Assembly: GCA_963666125.1 (NCBI GenBank) | Contig: OY762633.1 | Span: 1,139,249-1,203,248 of the forward strand | Direction: 5' to 3' | DNA from: Dehalococcoidia bacterium | GTDB taxonomy: Bacteria > Chloroflexota > Dehalococcoidia > Lucifugimonadales > CAJWER01 | DNA: 64,000 bases | In this document: positions 31,168 through 48,202 of the stretch, in pieces | Layout of the letters: each line of letters starts with the position of its first letter | How positions within the stretch are numbered: position 1 is the first letter of the stretch | Notes under the pieces: model-generated | The model's database searches: none | Seen by the model: only the letters and a program-made list of their open reading frames with translations | What the model was told of the DNA's origin: nothing | Made by a program: the position numbers and the translations under genes

Positions 31168-32390
31168 TCCAGGCCTCCTTCGCGGTACAAGGCCGTTCTT
31201 ATGGTTGCCAATACGCCGCTCTGATCGACGATAAACTCCGCTTCAGGGTGCCTGGCATCCTTCAGGAGGCGCTGGGCAGTGGTTATACCCAGACCGAAGC
31301 GCTGGACGAAGCCCAGTGTCTTCATGGCGTCGGCCAAGTTGGGGTTGCGATAGTCCAATGCTCCCGTGAGACCGAAGTTGTCGGCGGTCACTCTCCCGAA
31401 GGGCCCCCCGGGACTCATGATGTCAATTCGATCCTCGAACCAGTGGACGTGGACCGGCGCGTTGGTCGCCTCGTACGCGCGATGCATCACCGCGTTGCGA
31501 GTGATCTGCTGAATGGCGGGTATGGGATAGAGGCTTGTTCGTTTTTCGAGCGGAGCGGAGACGAAGTCCACGGCAGTCCTGTTATGGCTCTTCAGCTTCT
31601 CATCCAGGCGGCGCAGTACGTCCGGTACGGAGCCGCGGATGTCCTCGTCGTCAACTATGTCGGCGACGGGTTCCGCACCATCGAACTTGAGGAACTGTAC
31701 GTATGCGCCTGGCAGAAAGTCCTGCGGGTTCTTTCCCAGTACGAGAATTCCCAGGACGGTGGGAGTTGGATCGTCGGCTGAGGCGACCATTTTTGCGGCT
31801 GCCATCTGCTCTTCCCGGCTGCGCTCATTGGCTTCCAGCACCTCGCGCGCAAAGGCTTGCCTGAGATATTGGTACTCGAAGAAGCTCAGATCGATATCCT
31901 CCAGCCTGGCCGAGGGTATGGGGTGTATATCGAAGGGGATGTCCCGGTAGCGCCGCTTTTCGTTCAGAATGCGCTCGTCCTGCGGGGTTGCTATGCCGCG
32001 CCGGGGCCCTATCCGGATCTGTACCGTTCCCCTGAGGCGCACCGGCGGCGAGTCCGATGGCTGCACGCTGATTACTGCGACGTCCTTGCCCCGCAGAGAG
32101 CGCTTCTCGACAGTGATGGACGGAGGCGGAAGGATGTTGCCGTCGGTCTTCATGTCCCCCAGCTGCTGGAGCAGCCTATCCGTTATGGGGAGGCCCGTGA
32201 CCGTGCCATCGTCCCTGGCGCCCACAATCACGACGCCGGACCGGCGACGGTCGGGCAGGTCGTTGGCGAAGGCGCAGATCGCTTCCCGGATCTTCGTGGG
32301 CGCGTCACCCGACAAAGACTCCTTGAACTCTACCAAGTCCGACTCAAAGTCGCTCAGGAGTTCTGCCAGATCGGCGTCTTCAATGGTCAT
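31164..32390 (-). CDS. AlbA_2 (Schlafen-like) DNA/RNA-binding domain protein with HATPase_c_4-like C-terminal domain
   Basis: ESDLVEFKESL...ICAFANDL N-terminal AlbA_2 signature and C-terminal NAVMHRAY...YRNPNLADAM pattern. ATG 32390 preferred over the 32597 extension. Confidence 0.7.
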   Translation of the reverse strand: MTIEDADLAELLSDFESDLVEFKESLSGDAPTKIREAICAFANDLPDRRRSGVVIVGARDDGTVTGLPITDRLLQQLGDMKTDGNILPPPSITVEKRSLRGKDVAVISVQPSDSPPVRLRGTVQIRIGPRRGIATPQDERILNEKRRYRDIPFDIHPIPSARLEDIDLSFFEYQYLRQAFAREVLEANERSREEQMAAAKMVASADDPTPTVLGILVLGKNPQDFLPGAYVQFLKFDGAEPVADIVDDEDIRGSVPDVLRRLDEKLKSHNRTAVDFVSAPLEKRTSLYPIPAIQQITRNAVMHRAYEATNAPVHVHWFEDRIDIMSPGGPFGRVTADNFGLTGALDYRNPNLADAMKTLGFVQRFGLGITTAQRLLKDARHPEAEFIVDQSGVLATIRTALYREGGLE

Positions 32391-32575
32391 TGCGCTCCAC
32401 TCCCAACCAACAGCACTCGCACCTGTGGCGAACCAATGTCTCGTCAAAGCATGATACCATCGTGAAGCCCTAGTGGTCAGCGGCCCTGTGCATGGTCCAT
32501 TTCCATCATTGGGGGGAAAGTGCGCCCGGTTAGCCTTCCAAGTTGGGGCGGGCGCGGTGTACAAAATCTCCCGTG

Positions 32576-33508
32576 ATGAATGGCACCGAATGGGCATCGC
32601 TCCTCGACCGGTTCACGACGCACCTGGAGGCCGAAAGGGGTCTTGCGCCGCTGACGGTCAGGAACTACAGGACCGACCTGAAGCCCCTCTTCGACTACAT
32701 GGAGGGGCGCGGTATCTCCGACCTGAGGGCGCTGGACAGGTACGGGCTGCGTAGCTACCTGGCGTGGCTGGTGGAGCTTGGGTACGAGCGGTCGAGCGTC
32801 GTGCGGAAGCTGAGCGCCCTGCGCTCGTTCCTACGCTGGCTGCTGGCCGAGAAGCTGATCGACAAGGACCCGCTGCCCAGGCGCGGGGTTATGAAGCGGG
32901 ACAAGCGCCTGCCACGCTTCCTGTCCCAGGACGAGGCCGAGACGCTCGTATCGTCGCCGGACACGAGCGACGACTTGGGCGTCCGTGACCGGGCGCTGCT
33001 GGAGCTGGTGTACGCGGCCGGGCTCCGGGTCAGCGAGGTACACGACCTGGACGTCCACGACCTGAACCTGCACAGCAGGGAGCTGCGGGTGGTCGGCAAG
33101 GGAGCCAAGGAGCGCGTGGTGCTCATCGGGTCGGCGGCCCACGACGCCATTGCGCTGTACCTGAGGGACGTGCGCCCGGGTCTGTCGCAGCCCGGAAGCG
33201 GCGCGGCGCTGTTCCTGAACCGGTTCGGCACGCGCCTCAGCCGGCGCAGCATCCAGGAGAAGGTGCGCCGGTACGCGGCAAGGGCGGGCCTGGCGTCGGG
33301 CGTACATACCCACACGCTCCGCCACTCCTTCGCCACGCATCTCCTGGACGGCGGGGCCGACCTGCGGGTCGTGCAGGAGCTGCTGGGGCACTCCAGCCCG
33401 GCGACCACGCAGATATATACTCACGTAACACAGTCGAAGGCGCGAGAGGTGTACCTGTCGTCGCATCCGCGGGCCAGGGCCGGCGTGGAGGAAGAGCAAG
33501 AGCCATGA
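32576..33508 (+). CDS. Tyrosine recombinase, XerC/XerD family
   Basis: RNYRTDL core-binding domain, ARLSR, HTLRHSFATHLL, and LGHSSPATTQIYTHV (catalytic Tyr). Confidence 0.9.
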   Translation: MNGTEWASLLDRFTTHLEAERGLAPLTVRNYRTDLKPLFDYMEGRGISDLRALDRYGLRSYLAWLVELGYERSSVVRKLSALRSFLRWLLAEKLIDKDPLPRRGVMKRDKRLPRFLSQDEAETLVSSPDTSDDLGVRDRALLELVYAAGLRVSEVHDLDVHDLNLHSRELRVVGKGAKERVVLIGSAAHDAIALYLRDVRPGLSQPGSGAALFLNRFGTRLSRRSIQEKVRRYAARAGLASGVHTHTLRHSFATHLLDGGADLRVVQELLGHSSPATTQIYTHVTQSKAREVYLSSHPRARAGVEEEQEP

Positions 33509-33954: not shown

Positions 33955-35033
33955 ACACGGCGGCGAGGATCGAAAGGCTCCGGCAAGGGCTGGGCGAGAA
34001 CGAGATCGACGCGATGCTGGTCTCCAGCGCGGAGAACCGGCGCTACCTGTCCGGCTTCACGGGCTCGGCGGGGTACCTGCTGATCAGCGAGAGGGACCAG
34101 GTGCTGGTGACGGACTTCCGGTACACGGAGCAGGCCGAGAGGCAGTCGCCCGGCTACCGGGTGGAGCGGATGACGCCCGGGCAGGCGTGGAAGTGGCTGC
34201 CCGAGCTGGCGGCGGAGACGGCGGTCGGCCGCATCGGATTCGAGGCCAGCGACGTCACGGTCGCGACCCACTCGGCCTTCAAGAAGGCAATCGACGAACA
34301 CGAGGAATCGACGGACCTGACCCTCGTGGAGACGAGCGAGGTCGTCGACAAGATGAGGTCCGTGAAGGACCGGGACGAGCTCGAAATCCTGACGAAGGCC
34401 GTGGAGGTCACCGACAGGGCATTGGAGGAGGTGTCGGCGGCGGTCGAACCGGGTGTGACCGAGGTCGAGGTAGCGTGGGAGCTGGAGAAGTCGATGAGGG
34501 AGCAGGGGGCCGAGGGCCTGGCCTTCGAGACCATCGTCGCGGCGGGCCCAAACGGCGCGCTGCCCCACCATCTCGCCGACGAGACGCCCATCCAAGAAGG
34601 CCAGGCTGTCGTGATCGACATGGGGGCCAAGTACGACGGCTACTGCGCCGACCTGACCCGCACCATAGTCGTGGGGGAGCCGGACGAGAAGTTCGCCGAG
34701 GTCTACGGCACGGTGCTGCGGGCGCAGATCGAGGCCGAGGAGCGGGTCAGGCCCGGCATGACCGGCAAGGAGGTCGACGCCATAGCGCGCGACATCATCT
34801 CGGAGGCGGGCTACGAGGACAACTTCGGCCACAGCCTGGGCCACGGCGTGGGCCTCGCCGTCCACGAGTACCCGCGCGTCGGCCCGACCGGCGAGGACCC
34901 CATCGAGGACGGCATGGTGTTCACCGTCGAGCCCGGCATCTACCTGTCAGGCTGGGGCGGCGTGAGAATCGAGGACATCGTGGTCATGGAGAATGGCCGC
35001 GCCCGTGTCCTCAGCCGCGCCCCGAAGATATAG
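33951..35033 (+). CDS. M24 family Xaa-Pro aminopeptidase/dipeptidase
   Basis: Creatinase-like N-domain plus the pita-bread metal ligands (DMGAKYDGYCAD, HGVGLAVHE, EPGIY, IED). Confidence 0.9.
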   Translation: MNTAARIERLRQGLGENEIDAMLVSSAENRRYLSGFTGSAGYLLISERDQVLVTDFRYTEQAERQSPGYRVERMTPGQAWKWLPELAAETAVGRIGFEASDVTVATHSAFKKAIDEHEESTDLTLVETSEVVDKMRSVKDRDELEILTKAVEVTDRALEEVSAAVEPGVTEVEVAWELEKSMREQGAEGLAFETIVAAGPNGALPHHLADETPIQEGQAVVIDMGAKYDGYCADLTRTIVVGEPDEKFAEVYGTVLRAQIEAEERVRPGMTGKEVDAIARDIISEAGYEDNFGHSLGHGVGLAVHEYPRVGPTGEDPIEDGMVFTVEPGIYLSGWGGVRIEDIVVMENGRARVLSRAPKI

Positions 35034-35048
35034 CAGGCGCTTGCCGTC

Positions 35049-35068
35049 ATTCCCGCGCAGGCGGGAAT
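35049..35068 (+). terminator. Hairpin downstream of the M24 peptidase gene
   Basis: ATTCCCGC-GCAG-GCGGGAAT, an 8-bp stem and 4-nt loop, 16 nt after the stop. No T-tract. Confidence 0.4.
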
Positions 35069-35128
35069 CCATCCCGATAGTGCGAGACGGCGGCGTTCGC
35101 GCTACAATAGAGGTTCAGCCGCGCACAA

Positions 35129-35204
35129 GCCCCTGTAGCTCAGGCGGATAGAGCAACGGTTTCCTAAACCGTGTGCCCCGGTTCGAGTCCGGGCAGGGGT
35201 ACCA
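35129..35204 (+). tRNA. tRNA-Arg (anticodon CCT), CCA encoded
   Basis: Hand-folded cloverleaf: acceptor GCCCCTG/CAGGGGT, D-arm GCTC..GAGC, anticodon stem ACGGT/ACCGT with loop TTCCTAA, T-arm CCCGG-TTCGAGT-CCGGG, discriminator A, then CCA. Confidence 0.9.
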
Positions 35205-35217
35205 GGCTTGTCTTCCT

Positions 35218-35246
35218 TTGACTTCCCATTTGCCTGCCGTTATACT
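35218..35246 (+). promoter_or_regulatory. Near-consensus sigma70-type promoter (TTGACT-17 nt-TATACT) for hsdM
   Basis: The -10 ends 6 nt before ATG 35253, with no SD in between, which predicts a leaderless hsdM transcript. Confidence 0.45.
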
Positions 35247-35252
35247 GCAAAC

Positions 35253-37106
35253 ATGGCAAATATAGCAGAACGGCAGGCTATCGCGCCGACCCTCCAGGCC
35301 ATCCGCGCCAGGCTGGACCTGACGCAGGAGCAGCTTGCCGAGCGGCTTGGCGTGTCGTTCGCCACGGTGAACCGCTGGGAGGGCGGCGCGACCACGCCCC
35401 AGAGGGCGGCGCGGACGGCCATCGCCGCGCTGGCTGCCGAGGCCGGAGTCGACGCAGCCGGGCCGGGCGTCGACGAGGCGGAGTCCGCCGCCCGCGTGAC
35501 CCGGCGGCGGTCCCGGCGGCGGCAGGCCGAAGTCCCGTCCACCAAGCCCATGGAGCAGATGCTGTGGGACGCGGCCTGCTCCATCCGGGGCGCAAAGGAC
35601 GCGGCCAAGTTCAAGGACTACCTGCTGCCCCTCCTCTTCCTCAAGCGCCTCTCGGACGTGTTCGACGACGAGATCGACCGGCTGGCCCAGGAGTTCGGGG
35701 ACCGGGCGATCGCGCAGGAGATCGCGGAGAGCGACCACGGCCTGCTCCGCTTCTACCTGCCGCCGGAGGCCCGCTGGGGCGTGGTCAACGGCCGGGAGGC
35801 CCACGACTGGCCCCTCGACGCCGGGGGCCGCAGCACCCGCCCCCGCGACGTCGGCGAGCACCTGACCATGGCCGTGCGCGCCGTCGTGCGCTACAACCCC
35901 ACCCTCTCAGGCGTCATCGACCTGGTGGACTTCGCCTCGGAGCGCAACGGGGAGCGCGACCTCAACCCGGCCCGCCTCGCCGCCGTCGTCGAGACCTTCT
36001 CCGACCCACGCTACCGCCTGGGGCTCGCCGACGTGCAGCCCGACTTCCTGGGTCGCGCCTACGAGTACCTTCTCAGAAAATTCGCCGAGGGCTCCGGCCA
36101 GAGCGCGGGCGAGTTCTTCACCCCCACCGAGGTCGGCTTCCTCATGGCCCACCTGATGCGCCCCCGGCCCGGCGAGACGTGCCACGACTACGCCTGCGGC
36201 TCGGCCGGGCTGCTCATCAAGCTCCAGCTCGTCGCCCGGGAGGCCGACCCCACCAGCCGCGTTCCCCTCAGGCTCTACGGGCAGGAGCTGCAGGCCGACA
36301 GCTACGCCGTCGCCCACATGAACGCCATCATCCACGACATGGAGGTCGAGATAGAGCGCGGCGACACGATGATCAACCCCAAGTTCAAGGACGCCGCCGG
36401 GCGGATATCCGGCCACGACATCGTGGTCGCCAATCCCATGTGGAACCAGGACTTCAACCCGGACATCTTCGAGAACGACCCCTTCGACCGCTTCCGGGCC
36501 GCCGGGGGCGTCACCACCGGCAGGGGCGACTGGGCATGGCTCCAGCACACTCTCGCCTGCCTGAACGAGCGCGGGCGCGCCGCCGTGGTGCTGGACACGG
36601 GCGCGGTGACCCGGGGCTCGGGCGCAAGGCACGAGGACAGGGAGCGAAACATCCGCAAGTGGTTCGTGGAGCGGGACCTGGTCGACGGCGTGATCCTGCT
36701 GCCGGACAACCTCTTCTACAACACCAGCGCCGCCGGCATCATCGTCGTCCTGTCCAGGCGCAAGCCGGAGGCCCGCAAAGGCAAGATCGTGCTCGTCAAC
36801 GCCGGCAGGCGCGTCGGCAAGGGCCGCCCCAAGAATTTCATACCGGACGACGACATCCAGCCGGTGGCGGCGATGTTCCTGGAGGGCGAGCCGGTGGAGG
36901 GCGAGGTCGCCGTCATCACGCGAGAGCAGGCGGCGGAGGCCGACTACAACCTCAGCCCGAGCCGGTGGGTGGGGCAGACGAGCTCGACAGAGGTGGGTTC
37001 GGTTCGTGACCTGCTAGCGGAGCTTGCCACACTTGACAGGGAAGCCCACCAGCTTTCGGCGTCGCTGCACAAACTCCTGGCTGGAGTTGCTGATGAGTCT
37101 GCTTGA
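35253..37106 (+). CDS. hsdM: Type I restriction-modification system methyltransferase subunit with N-terminal XRE-type HTH
   Basis: N-terminal [23 protein letters not shown]. HsdM_N region ([14 protein letters not shown]), SAM motif [10 protein letters not shown], and catalytic NPMW (NPPF-type). Confidence 0.92.
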
Positions 37107-38403
37107 TACTGAACTTGCCGAAGGTCGCCAGTGGCTGCGGTTGGGTGACGCGTACGAAGTCACGAAGAAGCCTCGTGGACTTGATATGGCTTCGTTGCCT
37201 GCGGTCCCGTTCGTACCGATGGACGCCATCCCTCAAGGCGGTGCATATACAGCCGACTACACGATGAGGCCCCCAGGTGAAATCAGGAGTGGGACCTACT
37301 TCGAGCGCGGCGACGCCCTGATTGCCAAGATTACGCCGTCGTTTGAAAACGGCAAGCAGGCTCTCGCGACCGGGCTACCGACACCCTTCGGCATTGCCAC
37401 TACCGAGGTTATCCCGCTTCGACCGTGCAAGGAAGGGCAAGACAGGCGATTGTTGTTCTTCTACTTGCTGCATCCCGATGTCCGCCATCATGTCGCTGAG
37501 CGCATGGAGGGCGCGACCGGGCGACAGCGCATACCCGCCGACGTACTCCTTGATCTGCCGTTCCCAAAGTTCGATTCCGAAGAACAAACGACTGTCTCAG
37601 ACATCTTAGAGATGATTCAACAGCTAATGGCTGTTGAGACACAATCGATTGAGACGACTCAAACCCTCAAGCGCGCCGCGATGCGGACGCTGTTCACGCG
37701 CGGGCTGAGGGGCGAGGCGCAGAAGGAGACGGAGATCGGGCCGGTGCCGGAGAGTTGGGAGATGGTGCACATCGGCGACATTTTCGAGATTGAGCAGGGT
37801 CTATCGCTCAAGGGCAATCTGGCCACCAACGGAGACGGGACACCATTTCTCCGAACGTCGAACGTCTATTGGGGAGAGATTGACCTTCAGGCGGTCAGCC
37901 GGATGCATCTCAAACGTGACCCCGTACAGGAGAAGCTGTTGACAGCGGGCGACCTGCTTGTCTGCGAGGGTGGAGATATAGGCCGCGCGGCGGTGTGGGA
38001 TGGCGAGATAGAACATTGCCTGTTTCAGAATCATCTCCATTGTCTGCGTCCCATCGACGCCTCCCGAACGGAACCTCGTTTCGTGATGGCATGGCTCGAA
38101 GAGGGCTTCAAGCATCGCAACGCGTACGAGGGCGCCGGCAACCGTACAACTATCCCCAACCTCTCCCGATCACGCCTGGCGGGGTTGTCGATCCCCCATC
38201 CATCCGCAGACGAGCAACGTGAGGTCGTGAGCATCCTGGACGCCATCGACCGCAAGATTGACCTGCACCGCCGCAAGCGTGCTATAATGGATCAGCTGTT
38301 CAAGACGCTGCTACACAAACTGATGACGGGGGATATACGTGTGGGGGAGTTGGGTATTGCAATGTTGCACGACGACACTGCAGAAGTCACTGCAGACAGA
38401 TAG
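37093..38403 (+). CDS. hsdS: Type I restriction-modification system specificity subunit
   Basis: Two target-recognition domains separated by a conserved spacer helix ([14 protein letters not shown]) and a matching C-terminal helix ([15 protein letters not shown]). Overlaps the hsdM end. Confidence 0.88.
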
Positions 38404-38417
38404 CAGGGAATTGGGTT

Positions 38418-40007
38418 ATGAGAATCAAGAGCGCCACAATCAAGGATTTCAAGCGTTTCACAGATATGACCGTCCAGGGCATACCGGAAACTACTCGCCT
38501 CATTATGCTTGCTGGACCGAACGGTTCCGGTAAGTCGTCATTCTTTGATGCGCTTCACACTTGGCATAGATGGGCATCTCAAAAAAGACCGATATGGTCA
38601 GCGGACTACCATGTCAAAGCTGGCAGGCCTGACCTGGGAGGATGGGACAATAGTCTCTCGGCGGTGCAGTTCCATGACTCACAGTCCCATCCGGTAAAGA
38701 AGTCCCTCTACGTAAGGTCAGCCTACCGAAATGATCCTGAATTCAGAATCACTACGCTTCAAAGACAGGGAGACCTGCTGGATCTAACTCCATTCGGCCG
38801 AATGATTGACAATGACGCGGCAGTTGGGAGGAATTATCAACGGTTGGCCAGTCAGGGTCTGGTTGACTTGTATGGAGGTGGCTCCACAACATTCGATGAA
38901 TACCTAGAGCAGAGTATCGGTGCAGTACGGGGTCCATTGCTTAGGTTGTTCCCAGACCTCGCACTGGACAGTCTTGGAAATCCTTTGGAGAATGGAACCT
39001 TCCATTTTTCTAAGGGCACCAGTACAGGTTTTGCTTTCATGAATCTATCGGGTGGAGAGAAGGCTGCCTTTGACCTAATTCTAGATCTTGCTATTGCTAG
39101 GCGTTCCTACGACGATACGTTGTTCTGTATCGACGAGCCTGAATCTCATATGAATGCTCGTCTTCAAGCGGAATTGTTGTCTGTGCTGTATGAGCTAATC
39201 CCTGAGACCTGTCAACTAATGCTGGCGACTCACTCTGTAGGCATGATGCGCCGTGCCCGAGATATAGAAGCGCAACAGCCCGGAACTGTCATCTTCCTTG
39301 ATTTCGGTGAACGCGACTTTGATCAACCTCAGGTGATTGAGCCTACGGTTACCAACCGAGCGTTCTGGCAAAGAGCTTACGAAGTGGCGCTAGACGACCT
39401 CGCAGCACTGCTCGTACCTGAGAGGGTGGTGATCTGCGAGGGCGAGCCAATGAATTCATACTCGGGACAGAACTATTCTCACGATGCTCGTTGCTACCAG
39501 CGTACCTTTCAGACCGAATTCCCAGAAACGCAGTTCATTCCTGGAGGCAATGCATCAGAAGTCGCTGGTGACAAGCGTGGTATCGCGTATGCCTTAGGTA
39601 TGTTGACGCAGGGTACGCATGTCGTAAGGCTCGTTGACCGCGACGCAAGGTCACCACAAGAAGTTGACGAGTTGAAGAGGATCGGCGTGCGGGTACTATC
39701 GCGCCGCAATCTTGAATCCTACCTATTCGACAACGAAGTTCTACAGATATTAGCTCATTCAGTAGGAAGGTCCAATAAGGTCAATGACCTCTTAGCTGAA
39801 AAGCAGCGCATCATTATCCAGAGGACTGGAGATGCTCCTGACGACCTAAAGCCATCCAGTGGTGACATCTACAACGCATGCAAATCCATACTTGAACTCA
39901 CCAATCCCGGGAACAACACTAAGACCTTTATGCGCGACACCCTCGCTCCGCTCGTTCAGCCGGGGATGGCCGTGTACGACGAACTGAAGCGTGACATCTT
40001 CGGGTAG
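38418..40007 (+). CDS. ABC/SMC-type ATPase fused to a Toprim/DUF4435-like C-terminal domain (OLD-family / PARIS AriA-AriB-like)
   Basis: Walker A GPNGSGKSS, signature LSGGEK, Walker B LFCIDEPESHM, H-loop LATHS. The C-terminal domain carries VVICEGE, LVDRDARS and RRNLESYL, which resemble Toprim/DUF4435 motifs. Confidence 0.6.
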   Translation: MRIKSATIKDFKRFTDMTVQGIPETTRLIMLAGPNGSGKSSFFDALHTWHRWASQKRPIWSADYHVKAGRPDLGGWDNSLSAVQFHDSQSHPVKKSLYVRSAYRNDPEFRITTLQRQGDLLDLTPFGRMIDNDAAVGRNYQRLASQGLVDLYGGGSTTFDEYLEQSIGAVRGPLLRLFPDLALDSLGNPLENGTFHFSKGTSTGFAFMNLSGGEKAAFDLILDLAIARRSYDDTLFCIDEPESHMNARLQAELLSVLYELIPETCQLMLATHSVGMMRRARDIEAQQPGTVIFLDFGERDFDQPQVIEPTVTNRAFWQRAYEVALDDLAALLVPERVVICEGEPMNSYSGQNYSHDARCYQRTFQTEFPETQFIPGGNASEVAGDKRGIAYALGMLTQGTHVVRLVDRDARSPQEVDELKRIGVRVLSRRNLESYLFDNEVLQILAHSVGRSNKVNDLLAEKQRIIIQRTGDAPDDLKPSSGDIYNACKSILELTNPGNNTKTFMRDTLAPLVQPGMAVYDELKRDIFG

Positions 40008-40022
40008 GAAATGTGTGTGTAG

Positions 40023-40200
40023 ATGAACATTGAGCGAATCGCAGCCCTAGCCGCATCCGGTGAATCCGAGATGTTGGAGTTCAAGGAGGCTACCGGGACG
40101 CACCGCGAGGCGGCCATGAACTGTCTGCGCTCTTTCTGAACTAGGGCGACGAGTGCCGTTCGGTGTGACACGGACCGGCGTTTGATTGGAGAGCAAATGA
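40023..40200 (+). pseudogene. Decayed 5' fragment of an AlbA_2-domain gene
   Basis: A 38-codon ORF (MNIERIAALAASGESEMLEFKEATGTHREAAMNCLRSF*) parallels the N-terminus of the 41804 gene (IEALVASGESETLELKATTGTRREAAMTVCAFLN). Similarity continues out of frame (FLN*G.., VPFGVTRTG) and then is lost. Confidence 0.6.
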
Positions 40201-40219
40201 GTTCAATGAGAAAGACTAA

Positions 40220-40441
40220 ATGACCGAGCTTCTTCAGCAAGCCTTTGAGAGGGCTTCCGAACTCTCGGAGACGGAACAGGACAAGTTCGCTCGCTTCCTG
40301 CTGGCTGAACTGGAGTCGGCGCGGCAGTGGGCAGAGTTGTTCAGCAGTCCCGAATCGGAGGACCTGCTGGGGCGGCTGGCAGATGAGGCGATGTCGGAGC
40401 ACCGCGCAGGCCGAACTCGGCCCTTCTCATGCGGCGCATGA
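40220..40441 (+). CDS. Small acidic antitoxin-like protein (no adjacent toxin)
   Basis: 73 aa. The MTELLQQAFERASELSETEQDKFARFLLAELES... pattern matches small antitoxin-type proteins I recognise from TA loci. Family assignment is not verifiable here. Confidence 0.4.
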   Translation: MTELLQQAFERASELSETEQDKFARFLLAELESARQWAELFSSPESEDLLGRLADEAMSEHRAGRTRPFSCGA

Positions 40442-40464
40442 GGGCGCATGAGAAGGATAGGAAG

Positions 40465-40665
40465 ATGAGAAACACGCCCAATTTCCCGCCGGGATGGAAC
40501 GAAGAGCGCGTCCAGCGCGTCCTTCGGCACTATGATTCGCTGACCGAGGACGAGGAGGTTGCCGGGGACGAGGCCGCATTCGAGGACTCCACACAGGCTA
40601 TAATGGAGATTCCAAAGGAGCTTGTGCCTTCCGTGCGAGCGCTGCTTGCGGAGCGTGCCGGGTAG
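40465..40665 (+). CDS. Small acidic hypothetical protein (antitoxin-like)
   Basis: 66 aa from ATG 40465, preceded by GGATAGGAAG. PPGWNEERVQRVLRHYDSLTEDEE pattern, with no catalytic motifs. Confidence 0.35.
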   Translation: MRNTPNFPPGWNEERVQRVLRHYDSLTEDEEVAGDEAAFEDSTQAIMEIPKELVPSVRALLAERAG

Positions 40666-40677
40666 TAGGAGACGGCA

Positions 40678-41004
40678 ATGAACTCACAGGTATCGATCCC
40701 AAGAGACGCCCTCCCGGGCTTCTGCCGGAAGCACGGGATACGGCGTCTGTCGGTCTTCGGCTCGGCGCTGCGGGAGGACTTCGGGCCGGAGAGCGACGTG
40801 GACGTGCTGGTGGAGTTCGAGGAGGGACGGACTCCCGGCCTGTTTGGCCTTGCCGCCATGGAGCTGGAGTTGTCCGCGCTTTTCTCGGGGCGCAAGGTCG
40901 ATCTGCGAACTCCCGAGGACCTGAGCCGCTACTTCAGGCAAGAGGTGCTGGACACGGCGGAGGTGCAGTACAGTGCTATCTTGGGCGGGCCAGCCGATGA
41001 ATGA
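40678..41004 (+). CDS. Minimal nucleotidyltransferase (MntA-like, pol-beta superfamily)
   Basis: FGSALREDFGPESDVDVLVEF (GS...DxD NTase motif) and GRKVDLRTPEDL. This family is normally paired with a HEPN/DUF86 toxin. Confidence 0.8.
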   Translation: MNSQVSIPRDALPGFCRKHGIRRLSVFGSALREDFGPESDVDVLVEFEEGRTPGLFGLAAMELELSALFSGRKVDLRTPEDLSRYFRQEVLDTAEVQYSAILGGPADE

Positions 41005-41659
41005 GCGCGTGTACGTATTCCTGGACGAGTCGGGGAACCTAGACTTCAGTCCCAGTGGGACCCGCTACTTTGTTTTGACCAGCGTGAGCATGAAGCGGCC
41101 ATTCCAGATGAACGACGCGCTGGACGGTTACAAGTATGACTGCATCGAGTACGGTTTGGAGCAGGAGCATTTCCACTGCGCCAATGACAACACGCATGTA
41201 CGCAACAGGGTTTTCGGCCTGATACAACACCGACTCGACGGCATGGAGATCGACAGTCTACGTGTGGAGAAAGCCAAGACCAGCCCTGCCCTAACGGTCG
41301 AGAGTCGTTTCTACCCGGAAATGCTTGGCTATCTTCTCAAGTACGTCCTAGCGAGACCGTCTCATGCCCAGTCCCAGGAGATCATCATCATCACGGACAC
41401 CATCCCGCTGCAAAAGCGGCGCCGTGCCATCGAAAAGGTCATCAAGTCCACTTTGGCGAATATGCTGCCCAAGGGCTCACGGTACCGGATCCTGCACCAC
41501 GATTCCCGCTCCCACTGCGGCCTGCAGGTCGCGGACTACTGCTGTTGGGCGGTCTTCAGGAAGCATGAGAAAGGGGATAGCGCCTACTTCGACCTCATTG
41601 GGCCTGCAGTGCGCAGCGATTTCGATATCTTCCGAACCGGAACGACGTACTACTACTGA
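40997..41659 (+). CDS. DUF3800 domain protein
   Basis: N-terminal VYVFLDESGN and C-terminal GLQVADYCCWAV, both DUF3800 hallmarks. ATG 40997 overlaps the MNT stop (ATGAATGA). Confidence 0.7.
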   Translation: MNERVYVFLDESGNLDFSPSGTRYFVLTSVSMKRPFQMNDALDGYKYDCIEYGLEQEHFHCANDNTHVRNRVFGLIQHRLDGMEIDSLRVEKAKTSPALTVESRFYPEMLGYLLKYVLARPSHAQSQEIIIITDTIPLQKRRRAIEKVIKSTLANMLPKGSRYRILHHDSRSHCGLQVADYCCWAVFRKHEKGDSAYFDLIGPAVRSDFDIFRTGTTYYY

Positions 41660-41681
41660 TGCCCGCCGGGAAACAAAACGA

Positions 41682-41738
41682 CCCCCCCAACTACTCCGTC
41701 TCCGGAGAGAGCCCCTTGGGCTCTTGTCATCGGGGGGG
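41682..41738 (+). terminator. Nested GC hairpin structure downstream of the DUF3800 gene
   Basis: C7 (41682-41688) can pair with G7 (41732-41738), enclosing AGAGCCC-CTT-GGGCTCT (41708-41724). Confidence 0.3.
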
Positions 41739-41787
41739 AACCTTTGACCGAATGATAGCAAGCCGTCCGTTGGCTGTCAAACGATTC

Positions 41788-41793
41788 TATAAT
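41788..41793 (+). promoter_or_regulatory. Consensus -10 hexamer TATAAT upstream of the AlbA_2 regulator gene
   Basis: TATAAT ends 10 nt before ATG 41804. It overlaps the first in-frame ATG (41792), which argues for the downstream start. Confidence 0.3.
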
Positions 41794-41803
41794 GGATTCG
41801 CCA

Positions 41804-43207
41804 ATGAAATCCGATGAGATAGAGGCCCTGGTCGCCTCCGGCGAGTCTGAGACGCTGGAGCTCAAGGCCACTACCGGGACGCGCCGGGAGGCGGCGATGA
41901 CGGTGTGCGCCTTCCTGAACCAGCGCGGCGGGCAGGTGCTGTTCGGCGTGAGGCCGGACGGGGTCGTGGCTGGCCAGCAGGTCGGCGAGCGCACCATCGA
42001 GGAGCTGAGCGCCGAGCTTGGGCGAATCGACCCTCCGGCGTTCCCGACGGTGGAGCGGATCCCGGTGAGCGGCGACCGCGAGGTGATCGTGGTGACCGCA
42101 ACCCAGGGCACGTCGAGGCCGTACACCTACCGGGGCAGCGCCTACCGGCGGGTGGGGAACACGACGGTGGCAATGTCGTCCGACGAGTACAACCGGATGC
42201 TGTTCGAGCGGATGCACAGCGAGCAGCGCTGGGAGAACCGGCCCGCCGACGGGTGGTCGGTCGACGACCTGGACGCGGCGGAGATCCGCCGCACGGTCGC
42301 TGAGGCGGTCCGCCGGGGGCGGCTCGAGGAGCCCGTGAGCGGGGAGCCGCCGGACCTGCTGCGCGGGCTGGGCCTCCTGCGAGACGGGGTGCTGCTCCGG
42401 GCGGCCGCGGTGCTGTTCGGCAGTGCGGAGCGGCTGGAGTTCGAGATGCCCCAGTGCCTGCTCCGCGTCGCCCGTTTTCGCGGGGCCGACCGGATGGAGT
42501 TCCTGGACAATCGCCAGTTCACGGGCAACGCCTTCACGCTCCTGGCGAACGCGGAGCGCTTCCTGCGCGACACCCTGCCCATCGCCGGGCGGTTCGAGGC
42601 GAACCGATTCGAGCGGATCGACGAGCCGCTGTACCCGCCCCTGGCCACGCGCGAGGCGCTGGCGAATGCCCTGTGCCACCGGGACTACTCCATCGGGGGC
42701 GGCTCGGTGGGCATAGCGGTCTACGACGACCGCCTGGAGGTCACGTCCTCGGGGTCGCTGCACTTCGGCCTGACGCCGGAGAAGCTGTTCGTCCCCCACG
42801 AGTCGCGGCCCTGGAACCCGCTGATCGCCCGCACCTTCTACCGGCGCGGGATTATCGAGGAGTGGGGGAGCGGGACGCTGAAGATGGCGGACCTGTCGAG
42901 CAGCGCCGGGCTTCCGGTCCCGGAGATCGAGGACGACGGCGGGGCGGTGACCGTGCGCTTCCGGCACGGCGTGCCGGTCCCGGAGCGGCCCAACCGCGCG
43001 CCCAGTCCCGCCGAGCGGCGGGAGATGATACTCGCGCTGCTGGACGGCGCGGAGGAGGGACTGCCGAGGCGAGAGATTCACGCACGCTTGGGTTCCGGAG
43101 TTAGCGAGCGCCAGGTGCGAAGGACGCTGGAGGAGTTGAGAGAGCGCGGACTGGCCATGTCTACGAATCGCGGGACGCTGACGCGCTGGCGGCACATTGG
43201 GGCATGA
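41804..43207 (+). CDS. AlbA_2 (Schlafen-like) domain protein with HATPase_c_4-like domain and C-terminal winged-helix
   Basis: ESETLELK...VCAFLNQRGG, ALANALCHRDY...SRPWNPLIARTF, and a C-terminal ILALLDGAEEGLPRREIHARLG..SERQVRRTLEELRERG wHTH. Confidence 0.75.
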   Translation: MKSDEIEALVASGESETLELKATTGTRREAAMTVCAFLNQRGGQVLFGVRPDGVVAGQQVGERTIEELSAELGRIDPPAFPTVERIPVSGDREVIVVTATQGTSRPYTYRGSAYRRVGNTTVAMSSDEYNRMLFERMHSEQRWENRPADGWSVDDLDAAEIRRTVAEAVRRGRLEEPVSGEPPDLLRGLGLLRDGVLLRAAAVLFGSAERLEFEMPQCLLRVARFRGADRMEFLDNRQFTGNAFTLLANAERFLRDTLPIAGRFEANRFERIDEPLYPPLATREALANALCHRDYSIGGGSVGIAVYDDRLEVTSSGSLHFGLTPEKLFVPHESRPWNPLIARTFYRRGIIEEWGSGTLKMADLSSSAGLPVPEIEDDGGAVTVRFRHGVPVPERPNRAPSPAERREMILALLDGAEEGLPRREIHARLGSGVSERQVRRTLEELRERGLAMSTNRGTLTRWRHIGA

Positions 43208-43316
43208 TAGCGGCACGATACTGGCACGATAGGGGCGCGATAGGGGCGCGGTAGGGGCGCGGTAGGGGCGCGATAGGGGCGCGATAGGCGATACTGGCAC
43301 GATGGCGGCGCGTAGG
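43206..43316. repeat. Tandem degenerate 11-bp repeat array, block 1 (about 10 units, GATAGGGGCGC consensus)
   Basis: Units: GATAGCGGCAC GATACTGGCAC GATAGGGGCGC GATAGGGGCGC GGTAGGGGCGC GGTAGGGGCGC GATAGGGGCGC GATAGGC GATACTGGCAC GATGGCGGCGC. The array starts inside the stop codon of the upstream gene. Confidence 0.9.
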
Positions 43317-43351
43317 AGTGGCGAGTGAGACCCCTCGGGGCCTAAGGGGGT

Positions 43352-43493
43352 CTATAGGGGGCCTATGGGGGCGTTATGGGGGCGCGATACCGGCGCGATG
43401 GGTGCGCGATACTGCGCGATAGGGGCGCGATGGGTGCGCGATACTGCGCGATAGGGGCGAGGTAGGGGCGTTATGGGGGCGATATAAGGGGCG
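43352..43493. repeat. Tandem degenerate 11-bp repeat array, block 2 (about 13 units) with a 32-bp higher-order duplication
   Basis: CGATGGGTGCG-CGATACTGCG-CGATAGGGGCG occurs at 43396-43427 and again at 43428-43459. The array ends 3 nt before the hsdR ATG. Confidence 0.9.
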
Positions 43494-43496
43494 TCC

Positions 43497-46490
43497 ATGA
43501 CTGAGCTCAGGATTACCGAAGCAGGCTCCGTCCAGTTCCCGATGGTCCGCCACGCGGCGGAGGTCGGCTGGACGCCGCTGTCGCCATCGAACGCCCTCGC
43601 CATGCGAGGGGGCGAGGCCGGGCTGCTGTTTCGCGGCGTGCTGGAAGGGGCGCTGCGACGCTTCAACCCCTGGCTGACGGACGATGCCGTCCGCTCGGTG
43701 GTCGAGAACATCCAGGCGCTCCCGCCGACGGTCGAGGGCAACCGCCGGATGCTGGCCTGGCTGCGGGGCGAGCGGCAGTGGTACGACGAGGCCGAGAACC
43801 GCCAACGGCAGGTCCGGCTCATCGACTTCGACGAACCGGGCGCCAACGTCCTGCACGTGACCTGGGAGTGGCGGCTCAAGCCGCCCGCCCGCAAGGGCAA
43901 CCGAGCCGACGTGATGTTCGTGGTCAACGGCGTGCCGGCCGCCATCGTCGAGCACAAGAACCCGACGGACGCCGACGCCATAGAGCGGGGCGTCACGCAG
44001 CTGCGCCGCTACGAGGTCGAGACGCCGGAGCTGATGGGAGCGGCCCAGCTCTTCAACGTGACCCACCTGCTCGACTACTGGTACGGCGTCACCTGGAACC
44101 TGTCGCGCCGCTACATGGCGCGGTGGAAGGAGAGCCCGGAGGAGAGCTACCGGTTCGCCGTCCAGTCCTTCTTCGAGCCGACGGACTTCCTGCGCACCCT
44201 GCGCGACTGGATCCTCTTCTACGTGGAGGACGGCGAGACGCGGAAGACCGTGCTGCGCCAGCACCAGCGCCGCGCGGTGGACCGCATCGTCGAGCGGTGC
44301 GCCGAGACCGTGAAACGCCGAGGGCTCGTCTGGCACACCCAGGGGGCCGGCAAGACTTTTACCCTGCTCACCGCCGCCCGGCTGGTCCTGGAGGCCAGGG
44401 AGGAATTCGGCAACCCGACGGTAGTCGTCGTAGTGGACCGCACGGAGCTGGAGGGCCAGCTTGCGGGCTGGGTCGAGCGGCTGCTCGGGGAGATGCAGCA
44501 GCAGGACATCGACGTCCAGCGCGCCGGCTCGAAGGAAGAGCTGCGGGGAATGCTGGCCGCCGACAGGAGAGGGCTGATCATCTCGATGATCCACAAGTTC
44601 GAGGGCATCGAGAAGGACGCCAACCCCCGGGACAACATCTACGTGTTCATCGACGAGGCCCACCGCTCCGTGGCCAGGGAGCTTGGGACGTACCTGATGG
44701 CCGCGCTGCCCAACTCGACCATCGTCGGGTTCACCGGCACGCCCATCGCGCGAACGGAGCACGGGGAGGGGACATTCAAGATATTCGGGGCCGACGACGA
44801 GCAGGGCTACCTGGACAAGTACTCGATAGCCGAGTCCATCGAGGACGAGACGACGCTGCCGATCCGGCACACGATGGCGCCCAGCGAGATGAGGGTGCCG
44901 GCGGAGCAGCTCGACCGGGAGTTCTTCGCCCTGGCGGAGATGGAGGGCGTCACCGACGTCGACGAGCTCAACCGCGTGCTGGACCGGGCCGTGGGCCTGC
45001 GCACCTTTCTCTCAGCCGACGACAGGATCGAGAAGGTCGCGGCGTTCGTAGCCAGGCACTTGCAGGATAACGTGCTGCCCCTCGGCTACAAGGCGTTCCT
45101 GGTAGCGGTCAACCGGGAGGCCTGCGCCAAGTACAAGCGGGCGCTGGACAAGCTGCTGCCCCCCGAGTGGACCGTGCCCGTGTACTCGGAGAACACCAAC
45201 GACGTTGTTGAGAGGCCCCTCGTCGCCGAGCTTCAGCTTTCTGAGGAGCGGGAGAAGGACGTCCGCCTGACGTTCAAGAAGGCGAGCGAGGACCCGAAGC
45301 TGCTCATCGTCACCGACAAGCTGCTGACCGGCTTCGACGCGCCGCTGCTGTACTGCATGTACCTGGACAAGCCGATGCGCGACCACGTCCTCCTGCAGGC
45401 GATTGCGCGAGTGAACCGGCCGTACGTGGACGCGAAGGGAATCGGCAAGCCCATCGGCCTCGTCGTGGACTTCGTGGGCGTGCTGCGGGACCTGAGGAAG
45501 GCGCTGCAGTTCGACTCGTCCGACGTGAGCGGCGTGATCGAGGACCTCGAGCTGCTGATGCGCGACTTCCACGACAAGATTGCCGAGGCGAAGGCAAGAT
45601 ACCTGGACAACGCGACCGGCGGCGGAGTGGCCGAGACGCGGGCAGCCTATGCCGCCGCCGGAGGAGGCGCGGACGAGCGATTGGAGCAGGTCGTGTACAC
45701 GCGGTTTCTCGATCCCGATGCTCGCAAGGGGTTCTTCGAGGCGTACAAGGACATCGAGGCGTTGTGGGAGATACTCTCGCCATCCTCGGAGCTGCGCGAC
45801 CACATCGACACTTTCAGGCGTCTAACCCGTCTCTACGCCGTCGTCCGCAATGCCTACGCCGACCGTCCCGACTTCGTGGCGGATCTGGCGCACAAGACCC
45901 AGCGTCTCGTTGAAGAGTCGGCTACGATACACGGCCTGGGCAACCTCACCAAGGCAGTGAACTTCGACCTGCGCACCCTCACCGCTCTGCGGAACGAGTC
46001 GGGGCCGGACGAGGCCAAGGTGTTCAACCTGGTGCGCGGCCTCCAGGCGGAGGTGGAGAGCGAGCCGGAGCTGGAGTCCGTACTACGGCCTCTCAAGGAA
46101 CGCGCGGAGTCCGTGCTGAAGGGCCTCGAAGAGCGCACGACAACCGGGCTCGCGGCGATGGACATACTGGAGGCCCTCGCCAGGGAGAAGGAGGCTGCCG
46201 TCGCCGCCGCGAGGGACAGCACGCTGTCACCCAGGGCGTTCGGGGTGTACTGGACGCTGAAGGACGACCCCGCACTCGAAGCGGCCGGGGTGAGCGCAAC
46301 GGAGTTCGCGGAGGAGGCCCAGGCACTCGTGGACCGCTTTCCCAACGCCGCCGTCAACGCCGACGAGCAGCGACGGCTAAGGACTTCGCTGTACAACCCG
46401 TTGCTGAGGGTGGAAGGCGGCGAGCGGGGCCGGATCGTGGACCAGACCCTGGCGATACTGCTGGGCGGAGACGCCGATGCCGAGGCATGA
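43497..46490 (+). CDS. hsdR: Type I restriction enzyme R subunit
   Basis: HsdR_N nuclease region ([18 protein letters not shown]), helicase motif I TQGAGKT, motif [10 protein letters not shown], and later SF2 motifs. 997 aa. Confidence 0.93.
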
Positions 46491-46791
46491 CGACAGGTCC
46501 GGGGGCCTGCGACAGCGAGTGGAGTGCTGGGCAGAGCGCCTCCACGTCCCAGCGCCGCGCGTGCGAGTCCGGGACATGACCCGAAAGTGGGGTTCCTGCT
46601 CGACGGCCGGCACGATCACCCTTGCGACCGACCTGGGCAGCCAGGCCGTCGAGTTCCAGGACTTCGTTATCGCTCACGAGCTGCTGCACCTGCGGGTCCC
46701 GAACCACGGGAAGCTCTTCAAGGCTCTGATGAGTGCTCATGTCCCTGATTGGAGAAAGCACGACATCAGAAGAAAGATATCACCTGTATAA
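46477..46791 (+). CDS. Short DUF45/YgjP-like zinc metallopeptidase-fold protein
   Basis: [14 protein letters not shown] and [12 protein letters not shown] (HExxH). Overlaps the hsdR end by 14 nt. It is shorter than the typical roughly 230-aa family members as I recall them. Confidence 0.65.
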
Positions 46792-46801
46792 TCATAGATT
46801 C

Positions 46802-48202
46802 ATGCTGCTCACCATTTCCACGACATACCAGCCTGCTACGGATATTGGGTTCCTGTTGCACAAGAACCCGCTACGATTCCAGTCGTTCGACCTCCCGTTC
46901 GGGCGGGCGGATGTCTTGTACCCGGAAGCAGACGGCCATCGCTGCACGGCGGCGCTCCTGCTGAGCATCGATCCGGTGGGTCTTGTACGGTCGAAGCCCG
47001 GTGCCCCCGGTGCCGGGGACTGGCTTGGGCAATACGTGAACGACCGTCCCTACGTGGCGTCGTCACACCTGAGCGTGGCGATCTCCTCGGTATTCGGCAG
47101 CGCGCTCGCGGGGAAAAGCAGGGACCGGCCGGACCTCGCGGAAACGGCCATCCCGCTGGAAGCACATCTCCCCGTGGCGCCATCCCGTGAAGGTGCCGAC
47201 CTCATCAGGAGGTTGTTCGAGCCGCTTGGCTACAGCGTCGAGGTCGAGGAGCTCCGGCTGGATGAGCGTTTCCCCGAGTGGGGCGCCAGCCCATACTTCG
47301 GCGTGCGCCTCGCGTCGACGGCCCGGCTCCGCGACCTGCTCGCCCACCTGTACGTGCTGCTGCCCGTCCTCGACGACGAAAAGCACTACTGGATCAGCGA
47401 CGACGAGGTGGCCAAGCTGCTGCGCTTCGGCGAGGGGTGGCTGGCCAGCCATCCGCTGCGAACCCTCATATCCAGGCGATACCTGAAGCACCAGCGCAGC
47501 CTCGTCGACCAGGCGCTGGTCCAACTGCTCGACGCCGGGCCGGCCGACCCAGGCGCCGCTGCCACGCGGCACGAACGGGAAGAGGAGCAGCTCGAAGCCA
47601 CCCTTCGACTGGGTGAGCAGCGTACGCGGGCAGTGCTGGCCGCGCTCCGCGACGCCGGCGCTTCCAGGGTGCTCGATCTCGGGTGCGGCGAGGGCAGGCT
47701 GATCGGGGGACTGCTCGAGGAGCCTTCGATCCGGTCGATAACCGGCCTCGACGTCTCACACCGGGCGCTGGAAACGGCGCGCAGGCGTTTGCGCCTCGAT
47801 AGGCTGCCCACCCAGCAGCGGGACCGCGTCACCCTGCTGCACGGCTCCCTCACCTACACGGACGGACGGCTCTCGGGCCACGACGCCGCGGTGGCCATGG
47901 AGGTGATCGAGCACATAGACCCGACGCGGCTCGACGCCTTCGAGGAGGCCGTATTCGGGACCGCGAAACCCGACAGTGTCATCGTCACCACGCCCAATGC
48001 GGAGTACAACGTGCTATTCGAGGGGCTGCCCGACGGGGCGTTCAGGCACGGGGACCACCGCTTCGAGTGGACGCGGGGGGAATTCCAGGACTGGTCGAGC
48101 CGGGTCGCGGACCGGCGCAAGTGCGACGTACGCTTCCAGGGCATCGGCCCGGCCCATCCCGCCCATGGCGCACCGACCCAGATGGCCGTCTTTACCCGAT
48201 GA
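46802..48202 (+). CDS. hen1: 3'-terminal RNA ribose 2'-O-methyltransferase Hen1 (bacterial RNA repair)
   Basis: N-terminal MLLTISTTYQPATDIGFLLHKNP (Pnkp-ligase-activating domain) and a C-terminal SAM MTase with VLDLGCGEGRL and MEVIEHID. Confidence 0.88.
   Translation: MLLTISTTYQPATDIGFLLHKNPLRFQSFDLPFGRADVLYPEADGHRCTAALLLSIDPVGLVRSKPGAPGAGDWLGQYVNDRPYVASSHLSVAISSVFGSALAGKSRDRPDLAETAIPLEAHLPVAPSREGADLIRRLFEPLGYSVEVEELRLDERFPEWGASPYFGVRLASTARLRDLLAHLYVLLPVLDDEKHYWISDDEVAKLLRFGEGWLASHPLRTLISRRYLKHQRSLVDQALVQLLDAGPADPGAAATRHEREEEQLEATLRLGEQRTRAVLAALRDAGASRVLDLGCGEGRLIGGLLEEPSIRSITGLDVSHRALETARRRLRLDRLPTQQRDRVTLLHGSLTYTDGRLSGHDAAVAMEVIEHIDPTRLDAFEEAVFGTAKPDSVIVTTPNAEYNVLFEGLPDGAFRHGDHRFEWTRGEFQDWSSRVADRRKCDVRFQGIGPAHPAHGAPTQMAVFTR

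Follow-up and report, generated by a model that had tools for sequence, protein, structure and literature searches.

In a 64,000-nucleotide stretch of a Dehalococcoidia bacterium genome (contig OY762633.1; the whole stretch is called the window below), a type I restriction–modification (R-M) operon carries, behind its specificity gene hsdS, a gene encoding in one chain an ABC-type ATPase and a Toprim domain of the DUF4435 lineage. We read this gene, named ariAB-like here, as a single-polypeptide relative of the PARIS defence system ("merged" AriAB), a mobile cassette co-transcribed with the type I R-M genes and acting by a mechanism inferred from that system; a probability of about 0.7 is given to this reading. 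Two arrangements of ariAB are known, a cassette of two genes and a fusion into a single gene (Rousset et al., 2022; fused ariAB in PMC9122126 and PMC11464382), and two "merged" clades of PARIS were defined (Burman et al., 2024). Defence genes that lie inside type I R-M, BREX, or Hma systems were also described, embedded PARIS included, and the same work proposed a role of embedded PARIS as a backup against Ocr (Payne et al., 2024, 10.1101/2024.01.29.577857). Neither the fusion nor the embedding in restriction systems is new, and the window gene is a divergent PARIS-type member. What is new is a very large clade that Pfam DUF4435 does not see and that is publicly labelled "AAA family ATPase", its fixed place behind hsdS with apparent translational coupling, and the reassortment of its ATPase and Toprim halves between operons. 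The gene is laid out as follows, with the conservation percentages referring to 66 distant full-length representatives of the family, each from a different 50%-identity cluster:

38418..40007, forward strand: ariAB-like gene, an open reading frame of 529 amino acids; ABC ATPase fused to a DUF4435-type Toprim domain, predicted nuclease
38418..39347, forward strand: ABC/SMC-type ATPase domain (Pfam), residues 1-310, predicted sensor and switch
38514..38537, forward strand: Walker A (P-loop) GPNGSGKS, G33-S40; G33, N35, G36, G38, and K39 at least 97% conserved
39045..39059, forward strand: ABC signature LSGGE, residues 210-214; L210, S211, G213, and E214 at least 97% conserved
39126..39143, forward strand: Walker B CIDEPE, residues 237-242; D239, E240, and P241 at least 97% conserved
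39348..40004, forward strand: C-terminal DUF4435-like domain, predicted nuclease effector; Toprim core at about 335-440, then a helical region at about 440-529
39435..39446, forward strand: Toprim glutamate motif CEGE (in VVICEGE), C340-E343; E341 after strand 1
39636..39644, forward strand: Toprim DxD, D407-R408-D409 (in LVDRD), after strand 3; D407 and D409 invariant
39711..39725, forward strand: LESYL (in RRNLESYL), L432-L436; E433 and L436 invariant

The frame is uninterrupted, starts with ATG, and encodes a single polypeptide; the hsdS frame ends at 38403, 14 nt before this ATG. The preliminary description of this DNA, made from its letters, had claimed such a frame within a type I R-M operon and had quoted from it an ATPase motif set, VVICEGE, LVDRD, and RRNLESYL, and all of these were found where it had put them. 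A chance open reading frame is excluded because thousands of protein clusters match the full-length protein and hundreds match its C-terminal part: more than 3,700 clusters at 90% identity align over the full length (the best 120 at 65-87% identity), and 582 clusters at 50% identity match the C-terminal 225 amino acids taken by themselves. In public annotation, the homologues are merely "AAA family ATPase". The overall guanine–cytosine content (GC) of the gene is 0.51, and its GC at third codon positions (GC3) is 0.53.

The N-terminal half belongs to the ABC/SMC ATPases, as had been described. Pfam recognizes in it AAA_21 (E 4.5e-19, 70.1 bits, cut-off 27), SMC_N (3e-13), and AAA_15 (1e-11, 45.6 bits, cut-off 32.1), and an H-loop, ATHS, lies at residue 270. 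The motif residues of Walker A, the ABC signature, and Walker B are kept nearly throughout in the 66 representatives, and the most variable parts of the family are residues 41-100 and 141-180. In a Foldseek search with the whole-protein model, the ABC head has its best matches, at E 1e-9 to 1e-8, in ATPases from retron Eco8, Septu (PtuA), and Gabija (GajA). That search is dominated by the ATPase head, and so the C-terminal domain was modelled apart.

Relatives, profile matches, conserved residues, and model topology identify the C-terminal half as a Toprim domain of DUF4435 lineage. The preliminary description, which had called it Toprim/DUF4435-like, held here. Of the profiles that it had named for a check of the two halves, AAA_15 and AAA_21 were found, DUF4435 was matched by relatives and not by the window domain itself, and Toprim_OLD was matched by neither. 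The DUF4435 link is drawn through relatives because both Pfam and NCBIfam are silent on the window C-terminal domain. Relatives of the domain match the window at E 1e-31 to 1e-93. When 30 of them (32-49% identical to the window domain) were scanned singly, 12 matched PF14491 (DUF4435), the best at E 2.4e-9; two proteins, P0198 with 37.8 bits and P0234 with 32.4 bits, exceed the 27-bit gathering score of PF14491, over profile positions 5-119, which are the Toprim core. None of the same 30 matched Toprim_OLD (PF20469) at E <=1, and none matched RloB (PF13707). In this alignment E341, D407, D409, and E433 are invariant, and conservation of at least 97% holds for E341, D356, D407, D409, E433, and K478 among the 66 full-length representatives. 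Within LESYL, E433 takes the third acidic position known from Toprim domains of the OLD/DUF4435 type.

The AlphaFold (AF2) model of the domain is confident (pLDDT 90.9, from the predicted local distance difference test; predicted template modelling score, pTM, 0.84) and has a beta-alpha-beta Toprim topology, in which strands alternate with helices and a helical bundle comes after them; the glutamate is placed right after strand 1 and the DxD right after strand 3, as in a classical Toprim domain. When this model was compared by Foldseek with the PDB (350,542 chains), the order of matches was 8ux9_A, 6nk8_B, and 8x5i_A: first the A chain of 8UX9, the PARIS complex, then the OLD protein of B. pseudomallei in its C-terminal region, and then GajA. 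Chain A of 8UX9 has 306 residues and is, from its size, presumably AriB (35 kDa). The fold search is consistent with an AriB-type assignment of the modelled domain without deciding it. The spacing of E341, D407/D409, and E433 also resembles that of the AriB active-site segments 19-43, 80-87, and 109-115, which include the catalytic E26 (PMC12409363). The BFVD viral fold library was uninformative, yielding one RloB-like protein at rank 5 with E 0.06. A two-gene version of the system was sought among proteins of about 250 amino acids consisting of the C-terminal domain; most of them start within or just after the C-terminal region of the ATPase, several at THSIGMMR, and they look like truncated pieces of fused genes and not like separate AriB-like proteins.

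Among the PADLOC defence models, the whole protein is best matched by fused PARIS, AriAB PDLC02981 (81.3 bits, E 1.6e-23), with AriA as the runner-up (E 3.2e-20), and mad3 (E 4e-17), PtuA, GajA, and AbiLi (E 9.5e-12) also standing below AriAB; the other AriAB model, PDLC02982, gives 44.1 bits and E 2.8e-12. The C-terminal domain by itself has two PADLOC matches at E <=1, AriAB PDLC02982 (E 2.5e-7) and the Toprim region of GajA (E 0.006). The fused PARIS-like identity proposed in the preliminary description is borne out by this ranking; the acidic residues of its Toprim half proved invariant, and the protein does not group with the nuclease-less ATPases of the RloA/AbiL type. In the PARIS detection rule, profiles for fused AAA_15/21 and DUF4435 proteins are used with scores >=80 or >=20 (Rousset et al., 2022). 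The AriAB scores of 81.3 and 44.1 lie above these values, the first marginally, and the PADLOC models may not equal the DefenseFinder profiles.

Several observations weigh against the assignment to PARIS. The C-terminal 216 amino acids of the window protein give no PF14491 match at E <=10 and no meaningful NCBIfam match, and a 225-amino-acid version gives no PF14491 match at E <=1. The Foldseek matches to AriB, OLD, and GajA are all weak (E about 1e-2, TM 0.28-0.35), that to 8ux9_A having E 1.2e-2, probability 0.87, and TM 0.34/0.26. Sequence searches of the PDB, with single sequences or profiles, fail to reach AriB: with the whole protein, the family profile, the C-terminal domain profile, or P0198 as queries, the ATPase found Rad50, SMC, and ABC proteins and the C-terminal domain found noise. 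The modest AriAB scores (81 and 44 bits) mark the family as a remote branch, which may fall outside both "merged" clades of Burman et al. At about 310 amino acids, the ATPase part is also far shorter than AriA (55 kDa). Because this part is short, with merely a small helical insert, the ariAB-like protein need not share the architecture of PARIS, a hexameric propeller. As to its action, OLD and GajA, Toprim nucleases of the same superfamily, cut DNA, so that a tRNA target is extrapolated, and we know of no fused AriAB with an established trigger and of no published mechanism for one.

The likeness to fused PARIS (ariAB; "PARIS merge" in DefenseFinder, AriAB in PADLOC) is the closest among the systems compared. 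There too, an AAA_15/AAA_21 ABC ATPase is followed in one chain by a DUF4435-type Toprim domain, its model is the best defence model for both the whole ariAB-like protein and the C-terminal domain, and the cassette is single-gene, mobile, found in defence islands, and borne by phages. The differences are the low window scores given above, the silence of Pfam DUF4435 on the window protein, and the fixed address of the window clade after hsdS. Two-gene PARIS (AriA and AriB of E. coli B185, 8UX9) shares the two domain families and the Toprim acidic residues with similar spacing, and AriB is the top, albeit weak, structural match of the window domain; its triggers are the anti-restriction proteins Ocr and Stp, with which the location of the window gene in an R-M operon fits. 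However, AriA is a protein of about 55 kDa with large inserts and forms a hexameric scaffold that releases AriB, whereas the window ATPase is covalently joined to its nuclease, and the similarity to AriB lies below the reach of HMMER against PDB sequences.

PrrC of the EcoprrI locus likewise combines an ABC-type NTPase with a C-terminal nuclease, lies between type I R-M genes, and acts as a backup when the enzyme is inhibited, but its nuclease is HEPN-like. The PrrC/RloC anticodon nucleases were rejected on the PADLOC matches of the C-terminal domain, which are to AriAB and GajA alone, and on its model, which has a Toprim fold and no HEPN. An ABC ATPase followed by a Toprim domain in one chain is also found in the OLD family (P2 Old in class 1, GajA in class 2, and the retron Eco8 effector in class 3) and in HEC-04, and retron Eco8 and GajA are the top whole-protein Foldseek matches. 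Class 1 OLD proteins resembling P2 Old were rejected, as 0/30 family members match Toprim_OLD PF20469 and 12 match DUF4435. HEC-04 was not among the 25 best of 110 whole-protein PADLOC matches, nor was it matched by the C-terminal domain. Gabija was rejected as well: the preliminary description had reported no GajB-like partner, no UvrD-like helicase of that kind was found in 27968-53308, and the GajA models rank below AriAB. AbiL/RloA-RloB and mad3-mad4 of MADS pair an ABC ATPase with a Toprim-like partner, RloA/B and mad3/4 also in R-M-like operons; they differ as two-gene systems with a Toprim of the RloB family. The first was rejected because 0/30 members match RloB PF13707 and AbiLi scores E 9.5e-12 versus 1.6e-23 for AriAB. 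MADS was rejected on the HsdR, DUF3800, and AlbA_2 proteins of the locus, in which no match to mad6-8 was found; the analogues of mad2, mad3, and mad5 alone match.

The distribution of relatives indicates what kind of genetic element the gene is. In the close clade (at least 64% identity), ten loci were sampled, the nearest genome locus (86%) being a Dehalococcoidia metagenome-assembled genome (MAG). The gene lies directly 3' of hsdS in eight of them (L001/L005, L002, L003, L004, L006, L040, L042, and L043), and in most of these the hsdS stop and the ariAB start overlap as a 4-nt ATGA; the exceptions, L007 (64%) and L041 (68%), are outside type I operons. Distant members (26-47% identity, at least 10 phyla) occur as solitary genes whose contexts vary, and every sampled member with less than 50% identity is located outside type I operons. 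At least six of these distant loci abut other restriction or R-M genes (GmrSD_C, BsuBI/PstI R-M, Mrr, AlwI R-M, an Eco57I-type helicase-methylase, and other type I systems), and further ones adjoin genes for housekeeping or conjugation. IMG/VR viral contigs carry ten full-length members. Composition differs too: GC3 is 0.53 in the ariAB-like gene versus 0.90-0.91 in hsdM, hsdR, and the AlbA_2 gene of the window, and the GC of the gene is below that of the locus in 15/15 other loci, by a margin of merely 0.01 in one. Because distant members are solitary, some are carried on viral contigs, and GC3 is unlike that of the hsd genes, the ariAB-like gene is regarded as autonomous mobile cargo; it behaves as an exchangeable, horizontally mobile defence cassette, of which one clade has a preferred berth behind hsdS.

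Recombination is also suggested within the gene. Between operons, the ariAB-like proteins are 66-86% identical, compared to 76-89% for HsdM and HsdR, and their halves disagree: L001 and L004 share 67% in the N-terminal and 89% in the C-terminal half, and L004 and L042 share 86% and 73%, respectively. These discordant identities suggest recombination between alleles at the domain junction. In the window, L001, L003, L004, and L006, the low GC3 extends to the preceding gene (hsdS 0.61-0.68, ariAB 0.53-0.61, versus 0.72-0.91 in hsdM/hsdR/AlbA_2), and exchange may affect hsdS and ariAB jointly, as one segment set between conserved flanks.

We infer the mechanism of the ariAB-like protein (trigger, substrate, oligomeric state, and abortive outcome) from E. 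coli PARIS (PMC11464382, PMC12409363) and the general behaviour of ABC ATPases. It is proposed that the N-terminal AriA-like ABC ATPase would serve as the infection sensor and switch, and the C-terminal AriB-like Toprim domain as a two-metal nuclease, which in the rest state would be kept inactive by the ATPase head. A phage protein would bind the variable inserts of the ATPase (residues ~41-100 and ~141-180); because the gene sits inside an R-M operon, an Ocr- or ArdA-like anti-restriction protein is the natural candidate. ATP-dependent engagement of the heads would then join two Toprim domains into an active dimer. This dimer would cut nucleic acid of the host, with tRNA anticodon stem-loops, which AriB cuts, as the most likely target, leading to a stop of translation and to an aborted infection. 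Since ATPase and nuclease are covalently fused, activation must be conformational and not a release of the nuclease. E. coli PARIS is a remote relative, and it is by analogy with it that a role as anti-anti-restriction guard, triggering by Ocr, and cleavage of tRNA are proposed.

The substrate is the step at which another reading diverges. It keeps the same architecture and makes the effector an OLD/GajA-type DNA nickase or exonuclease acting on phage or host DNA, not a tRNA anticodon nuclease. A DNA target as in OLD and GajA is a serious alternative; at Foldseek ranks 2 and 3 stand B. pseudomallei OLD (C-terminal region) and GajA, which score as high as AriB, the domain has in PADLOC a sole non-PARIS match, to the Toprim region of GajA, and HEC-04, another fused ABC-ATPase/Toprim defence protein, was modelled on OLD. 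However, the profiles favour DUF4435/AriAB over Toprim_OLD (12/30 vs 0/30 relatives), and AriB, the only DUF4435 nuclease studied biochemically, cleaves tRNA (PMC12409363), so that we consider a DNA nuclease unlikely. Far less credit, close to none, is given to the idea that the protein is an ordinary RloA/AbiLi-like or "restriction-associated AAA" ATPase whose C-terminal extension is a non-catalytic helical or regulatory part. The public label, the silence of Pfam on the C-terminal 216 amino acids, and weak matches to AbiLi (E 9.5e-12) and TIGR04435 (E 1e-5, far below its cut-off) would agree with it, whereas the six residues from E341 to K478 listed above are kept in very distant members, the confident model has Toprim topology, the AriAB and DUF4435 profiles are matched, and RloB is matched by no relative.

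A further reading concerns the bond between the gene and its operon. It assumes that the protein is no independent cargo but a functionally coupled accessory of the type I R-M enzyme, either a latent guard in the manner of PrrC, which the Hsd complex would bind and keep inactive until an anti-restriction protein attacks that complex, or an integral part like mad3/mad4 of MADS. The hsdS-adjacent position in 8/10 loci and the ATGA overlap, which suggests translational coupling, speak for it, although in the window itself the gene starts 14 nt from hsdS with no overlap, and the two exceptional loci of the clade, as well as every sampled member below 50% identity, are outside type I operons. It can also be supported by similarities to MADS, since the ATPase matches mad3 (E 4e-17), HsdM matches mad2, and HsdS matches mad5; the mad3 ATPase and mad4 are needed for MADS defence (10.1101/2023.03.30.534895), and mad4 is listed as a TOPRIM nuclease (PMC11464382). 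However, the mandatory mad6-8 are unmatched in the scanned proteins. The precedent of PrrC, an ABC-ATPase nuclease that is embedded within a type I enzyme and kept silent by it (10.1101/2024.01.29.577857), is set against a GC3 sharply unlike that of hsdM/hsdR and a divergence decoupled from that of the Hsd proteins (66-86% vs 76-89%), with mosaic N- and C-terminal halves. Altogether, such an accessory role appears quite improbable. The same low standing is given to a related proposal, in which the ariAB-like protein would be coupled translationally and physically to the HsdM2S core and would guard the integrity of the complex as PrrC does, with a Toprim nuclease and not by binding the anti-restriction protein of the phage directly, the reassortment of halves reflecting an arms race over the sensed target.

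If the ariAB-like protein is a fused PARIS relative, as preferred here, its covalent fusion excludes the nuclease release of two-gene PARIS and raises the question of how fused AriAB proteins, predicted in many genomes, are switched on. The clade is a natural test bed for it: the protein is small (529 amino acids) and self-contained, and its gene is fixed behind hsdS, so that the "guard of restriction" idea can be put to a direct test. As Pfam DUF4435 fails to detect most of the family, thousands of its proteins are labelled merely "AAA family ATPase", and a family-specific profile would improve the annotation of defence systems.

The host operon and its neighbours comprise the following genes:

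35208..37106, forward strand: hsdM with an N-terminal Xre-type helix-turn-helix (HTH) domain (Pfam HTH_3, HsdM_N, N6_Mtase; PADLOC MTase_I 2e-152)
37024..38403, forward strand: hsdS specificity subunit, start uncertain, overlapping the hsdM end (Methylase_S 7e-21; Specificity_I 1e-89)
40023..40139, forward strand: remaining 5' part of an AlbA_2 (Schlafen-like) gene, 14 nt past the ariAB stop, 62% identical to residues 5-38 of the AlbA_2 protein at 41792
40220-40441 and 40429-40665, forward strand: two small open reading frames with no Pfam match
40678..41004, forward strand: MNT-type nucleotidyltransferase, inserted cargo (NTP_transf_2 3e-11, Polbeta 9e-9)
40973..41659, forward strand: DUF3800 protein, inserted cargo (PF12686 8e-17; PADLOC DUF3800_VII 1e-7)
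41792..43207, forward strand: AlbA_2/HATPase_c_4/HTH protein (Pfam), frequent second embedded gene
43497..46490, forward strand: hsdR restriction subunit (HSDR_N, SWI2_SNF2, ResIII, T1R_D3-like; REase_I 4e-86)
46477..46791, forward strand: gene with a YgjP-like metallopeptidase domain, conserved last operon gene (PF01863 1e-26)
46733-48202, forward strand: Hen1 (Hen1_L E 1e-106 and a methyltransferase domain)
48067-50769, forward strand: Pnkp (kinase, phosphatase, and PNKP_ligase, E 1e-176)

A promoter and terminator scan of 34900-47000 gave counts at the level of shuffled sequence, with no terminator between hsdS, ariAB, and hsdR. As terminator-like sites are absent between them, the ariAB-like gene probably shares a transcript with the R-M genes. 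A promoter-like TTGACT-17-TATACT lies at 35218-35246, and because it falls inside the called hsdM frame, the true hsdM start is probably downstream of 35246. The HTH_3-HsdM fusion is kept in every related operon with an annotated hsdM product (L001-L004, L040, L042, and L043), which hints at autoregulation of the operon by its methyltransferase. No helicase besides HsdR was found in 27968-53308, and no reverse transcriptase or non-coding RNA partner was seen near the ariAB-like gene.

The minimal operon, that of L043, consists of HTH-hsdM, hsdS, the ariAB-like gene, hsdR, and the YgjP-like gene, the latter holding the same last position in L001, L003, L004, L042, and L043. The AlbA_2/HATPase_c_4 gene is present in L001, L003, L004, and L040 and missing from L043. 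A 5' stub of it (about 35-70 codons) persists right after ariAB in the window, L001, L002, L003, and L042, as a fragment of 67-69 amino acids in the relatives (L001 9604-9813; L003 9619-9828; L042 8623-8826). Cargo between this stub and the next intact gene differs between operons; in the window, the two small frames, the MNT gene, and the DUF3800 gene are followed by an intact AlbA_2 gene. Insertions seem to recur at the 5' end of the AlbA_2 gene. Other cargos, DarTG2, TgvAB, and PrrC, are known between hsdS and hsdR. The weak match of the DUF3800 protein (40973-41659) is to a model whose name, DUF3800_VII, suggests the effector family of retron type VII, and no reverse transcriptase was seen beside its gene.

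Directly downstream of the R-M/ariAB-like locus lies a Hen1-Pnkp RNA repair operon (46733-50769, forward strand), and a tRNA-repair module adjoining a predicted tRNA-targeting nuclease is a striking juxtaposition. Hen1-Pnkp is missing from the retrieved flanks of the related operons L001, L003, L004, L042, and L043, and the adjacency may for this reason be a coincidence. On the other side of the locus, a XerC/D-type tyrosine recombinase (32543-33508, forward strand) is located about 2 kb upstream of the R-M operon, and a second AlbA_2/HATPase_c_4 gene (31164-32597, reverse strand) adjoins a ParA-like ATPase gene (30157-31167, reverse strand).

Defence islands surround the related operons. L001 has a CBASS-like set (SMODS, bacHORMA, AAA) with DUF6602 just upstream (1679-4827) and a TIR protein just downstream (15915-16778), and in L003 ThsB-like TIR genes are found upstream (3001-4681). 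In L040 (8872-14662), hsdM is seemingly interrupted, and a 1,067-amino-acid protein without Pfam match and a second AAA_15/AAA_21 ATPase stand between ariAB and AlbA_2. In L008, a Proteobacteria MAG, a 46%-identical member (11593-13323, forward strand) overlaps a downstream reading frame of 576 amino acids that has no Pfam match and could be an unrecognised partner gene in that branch.

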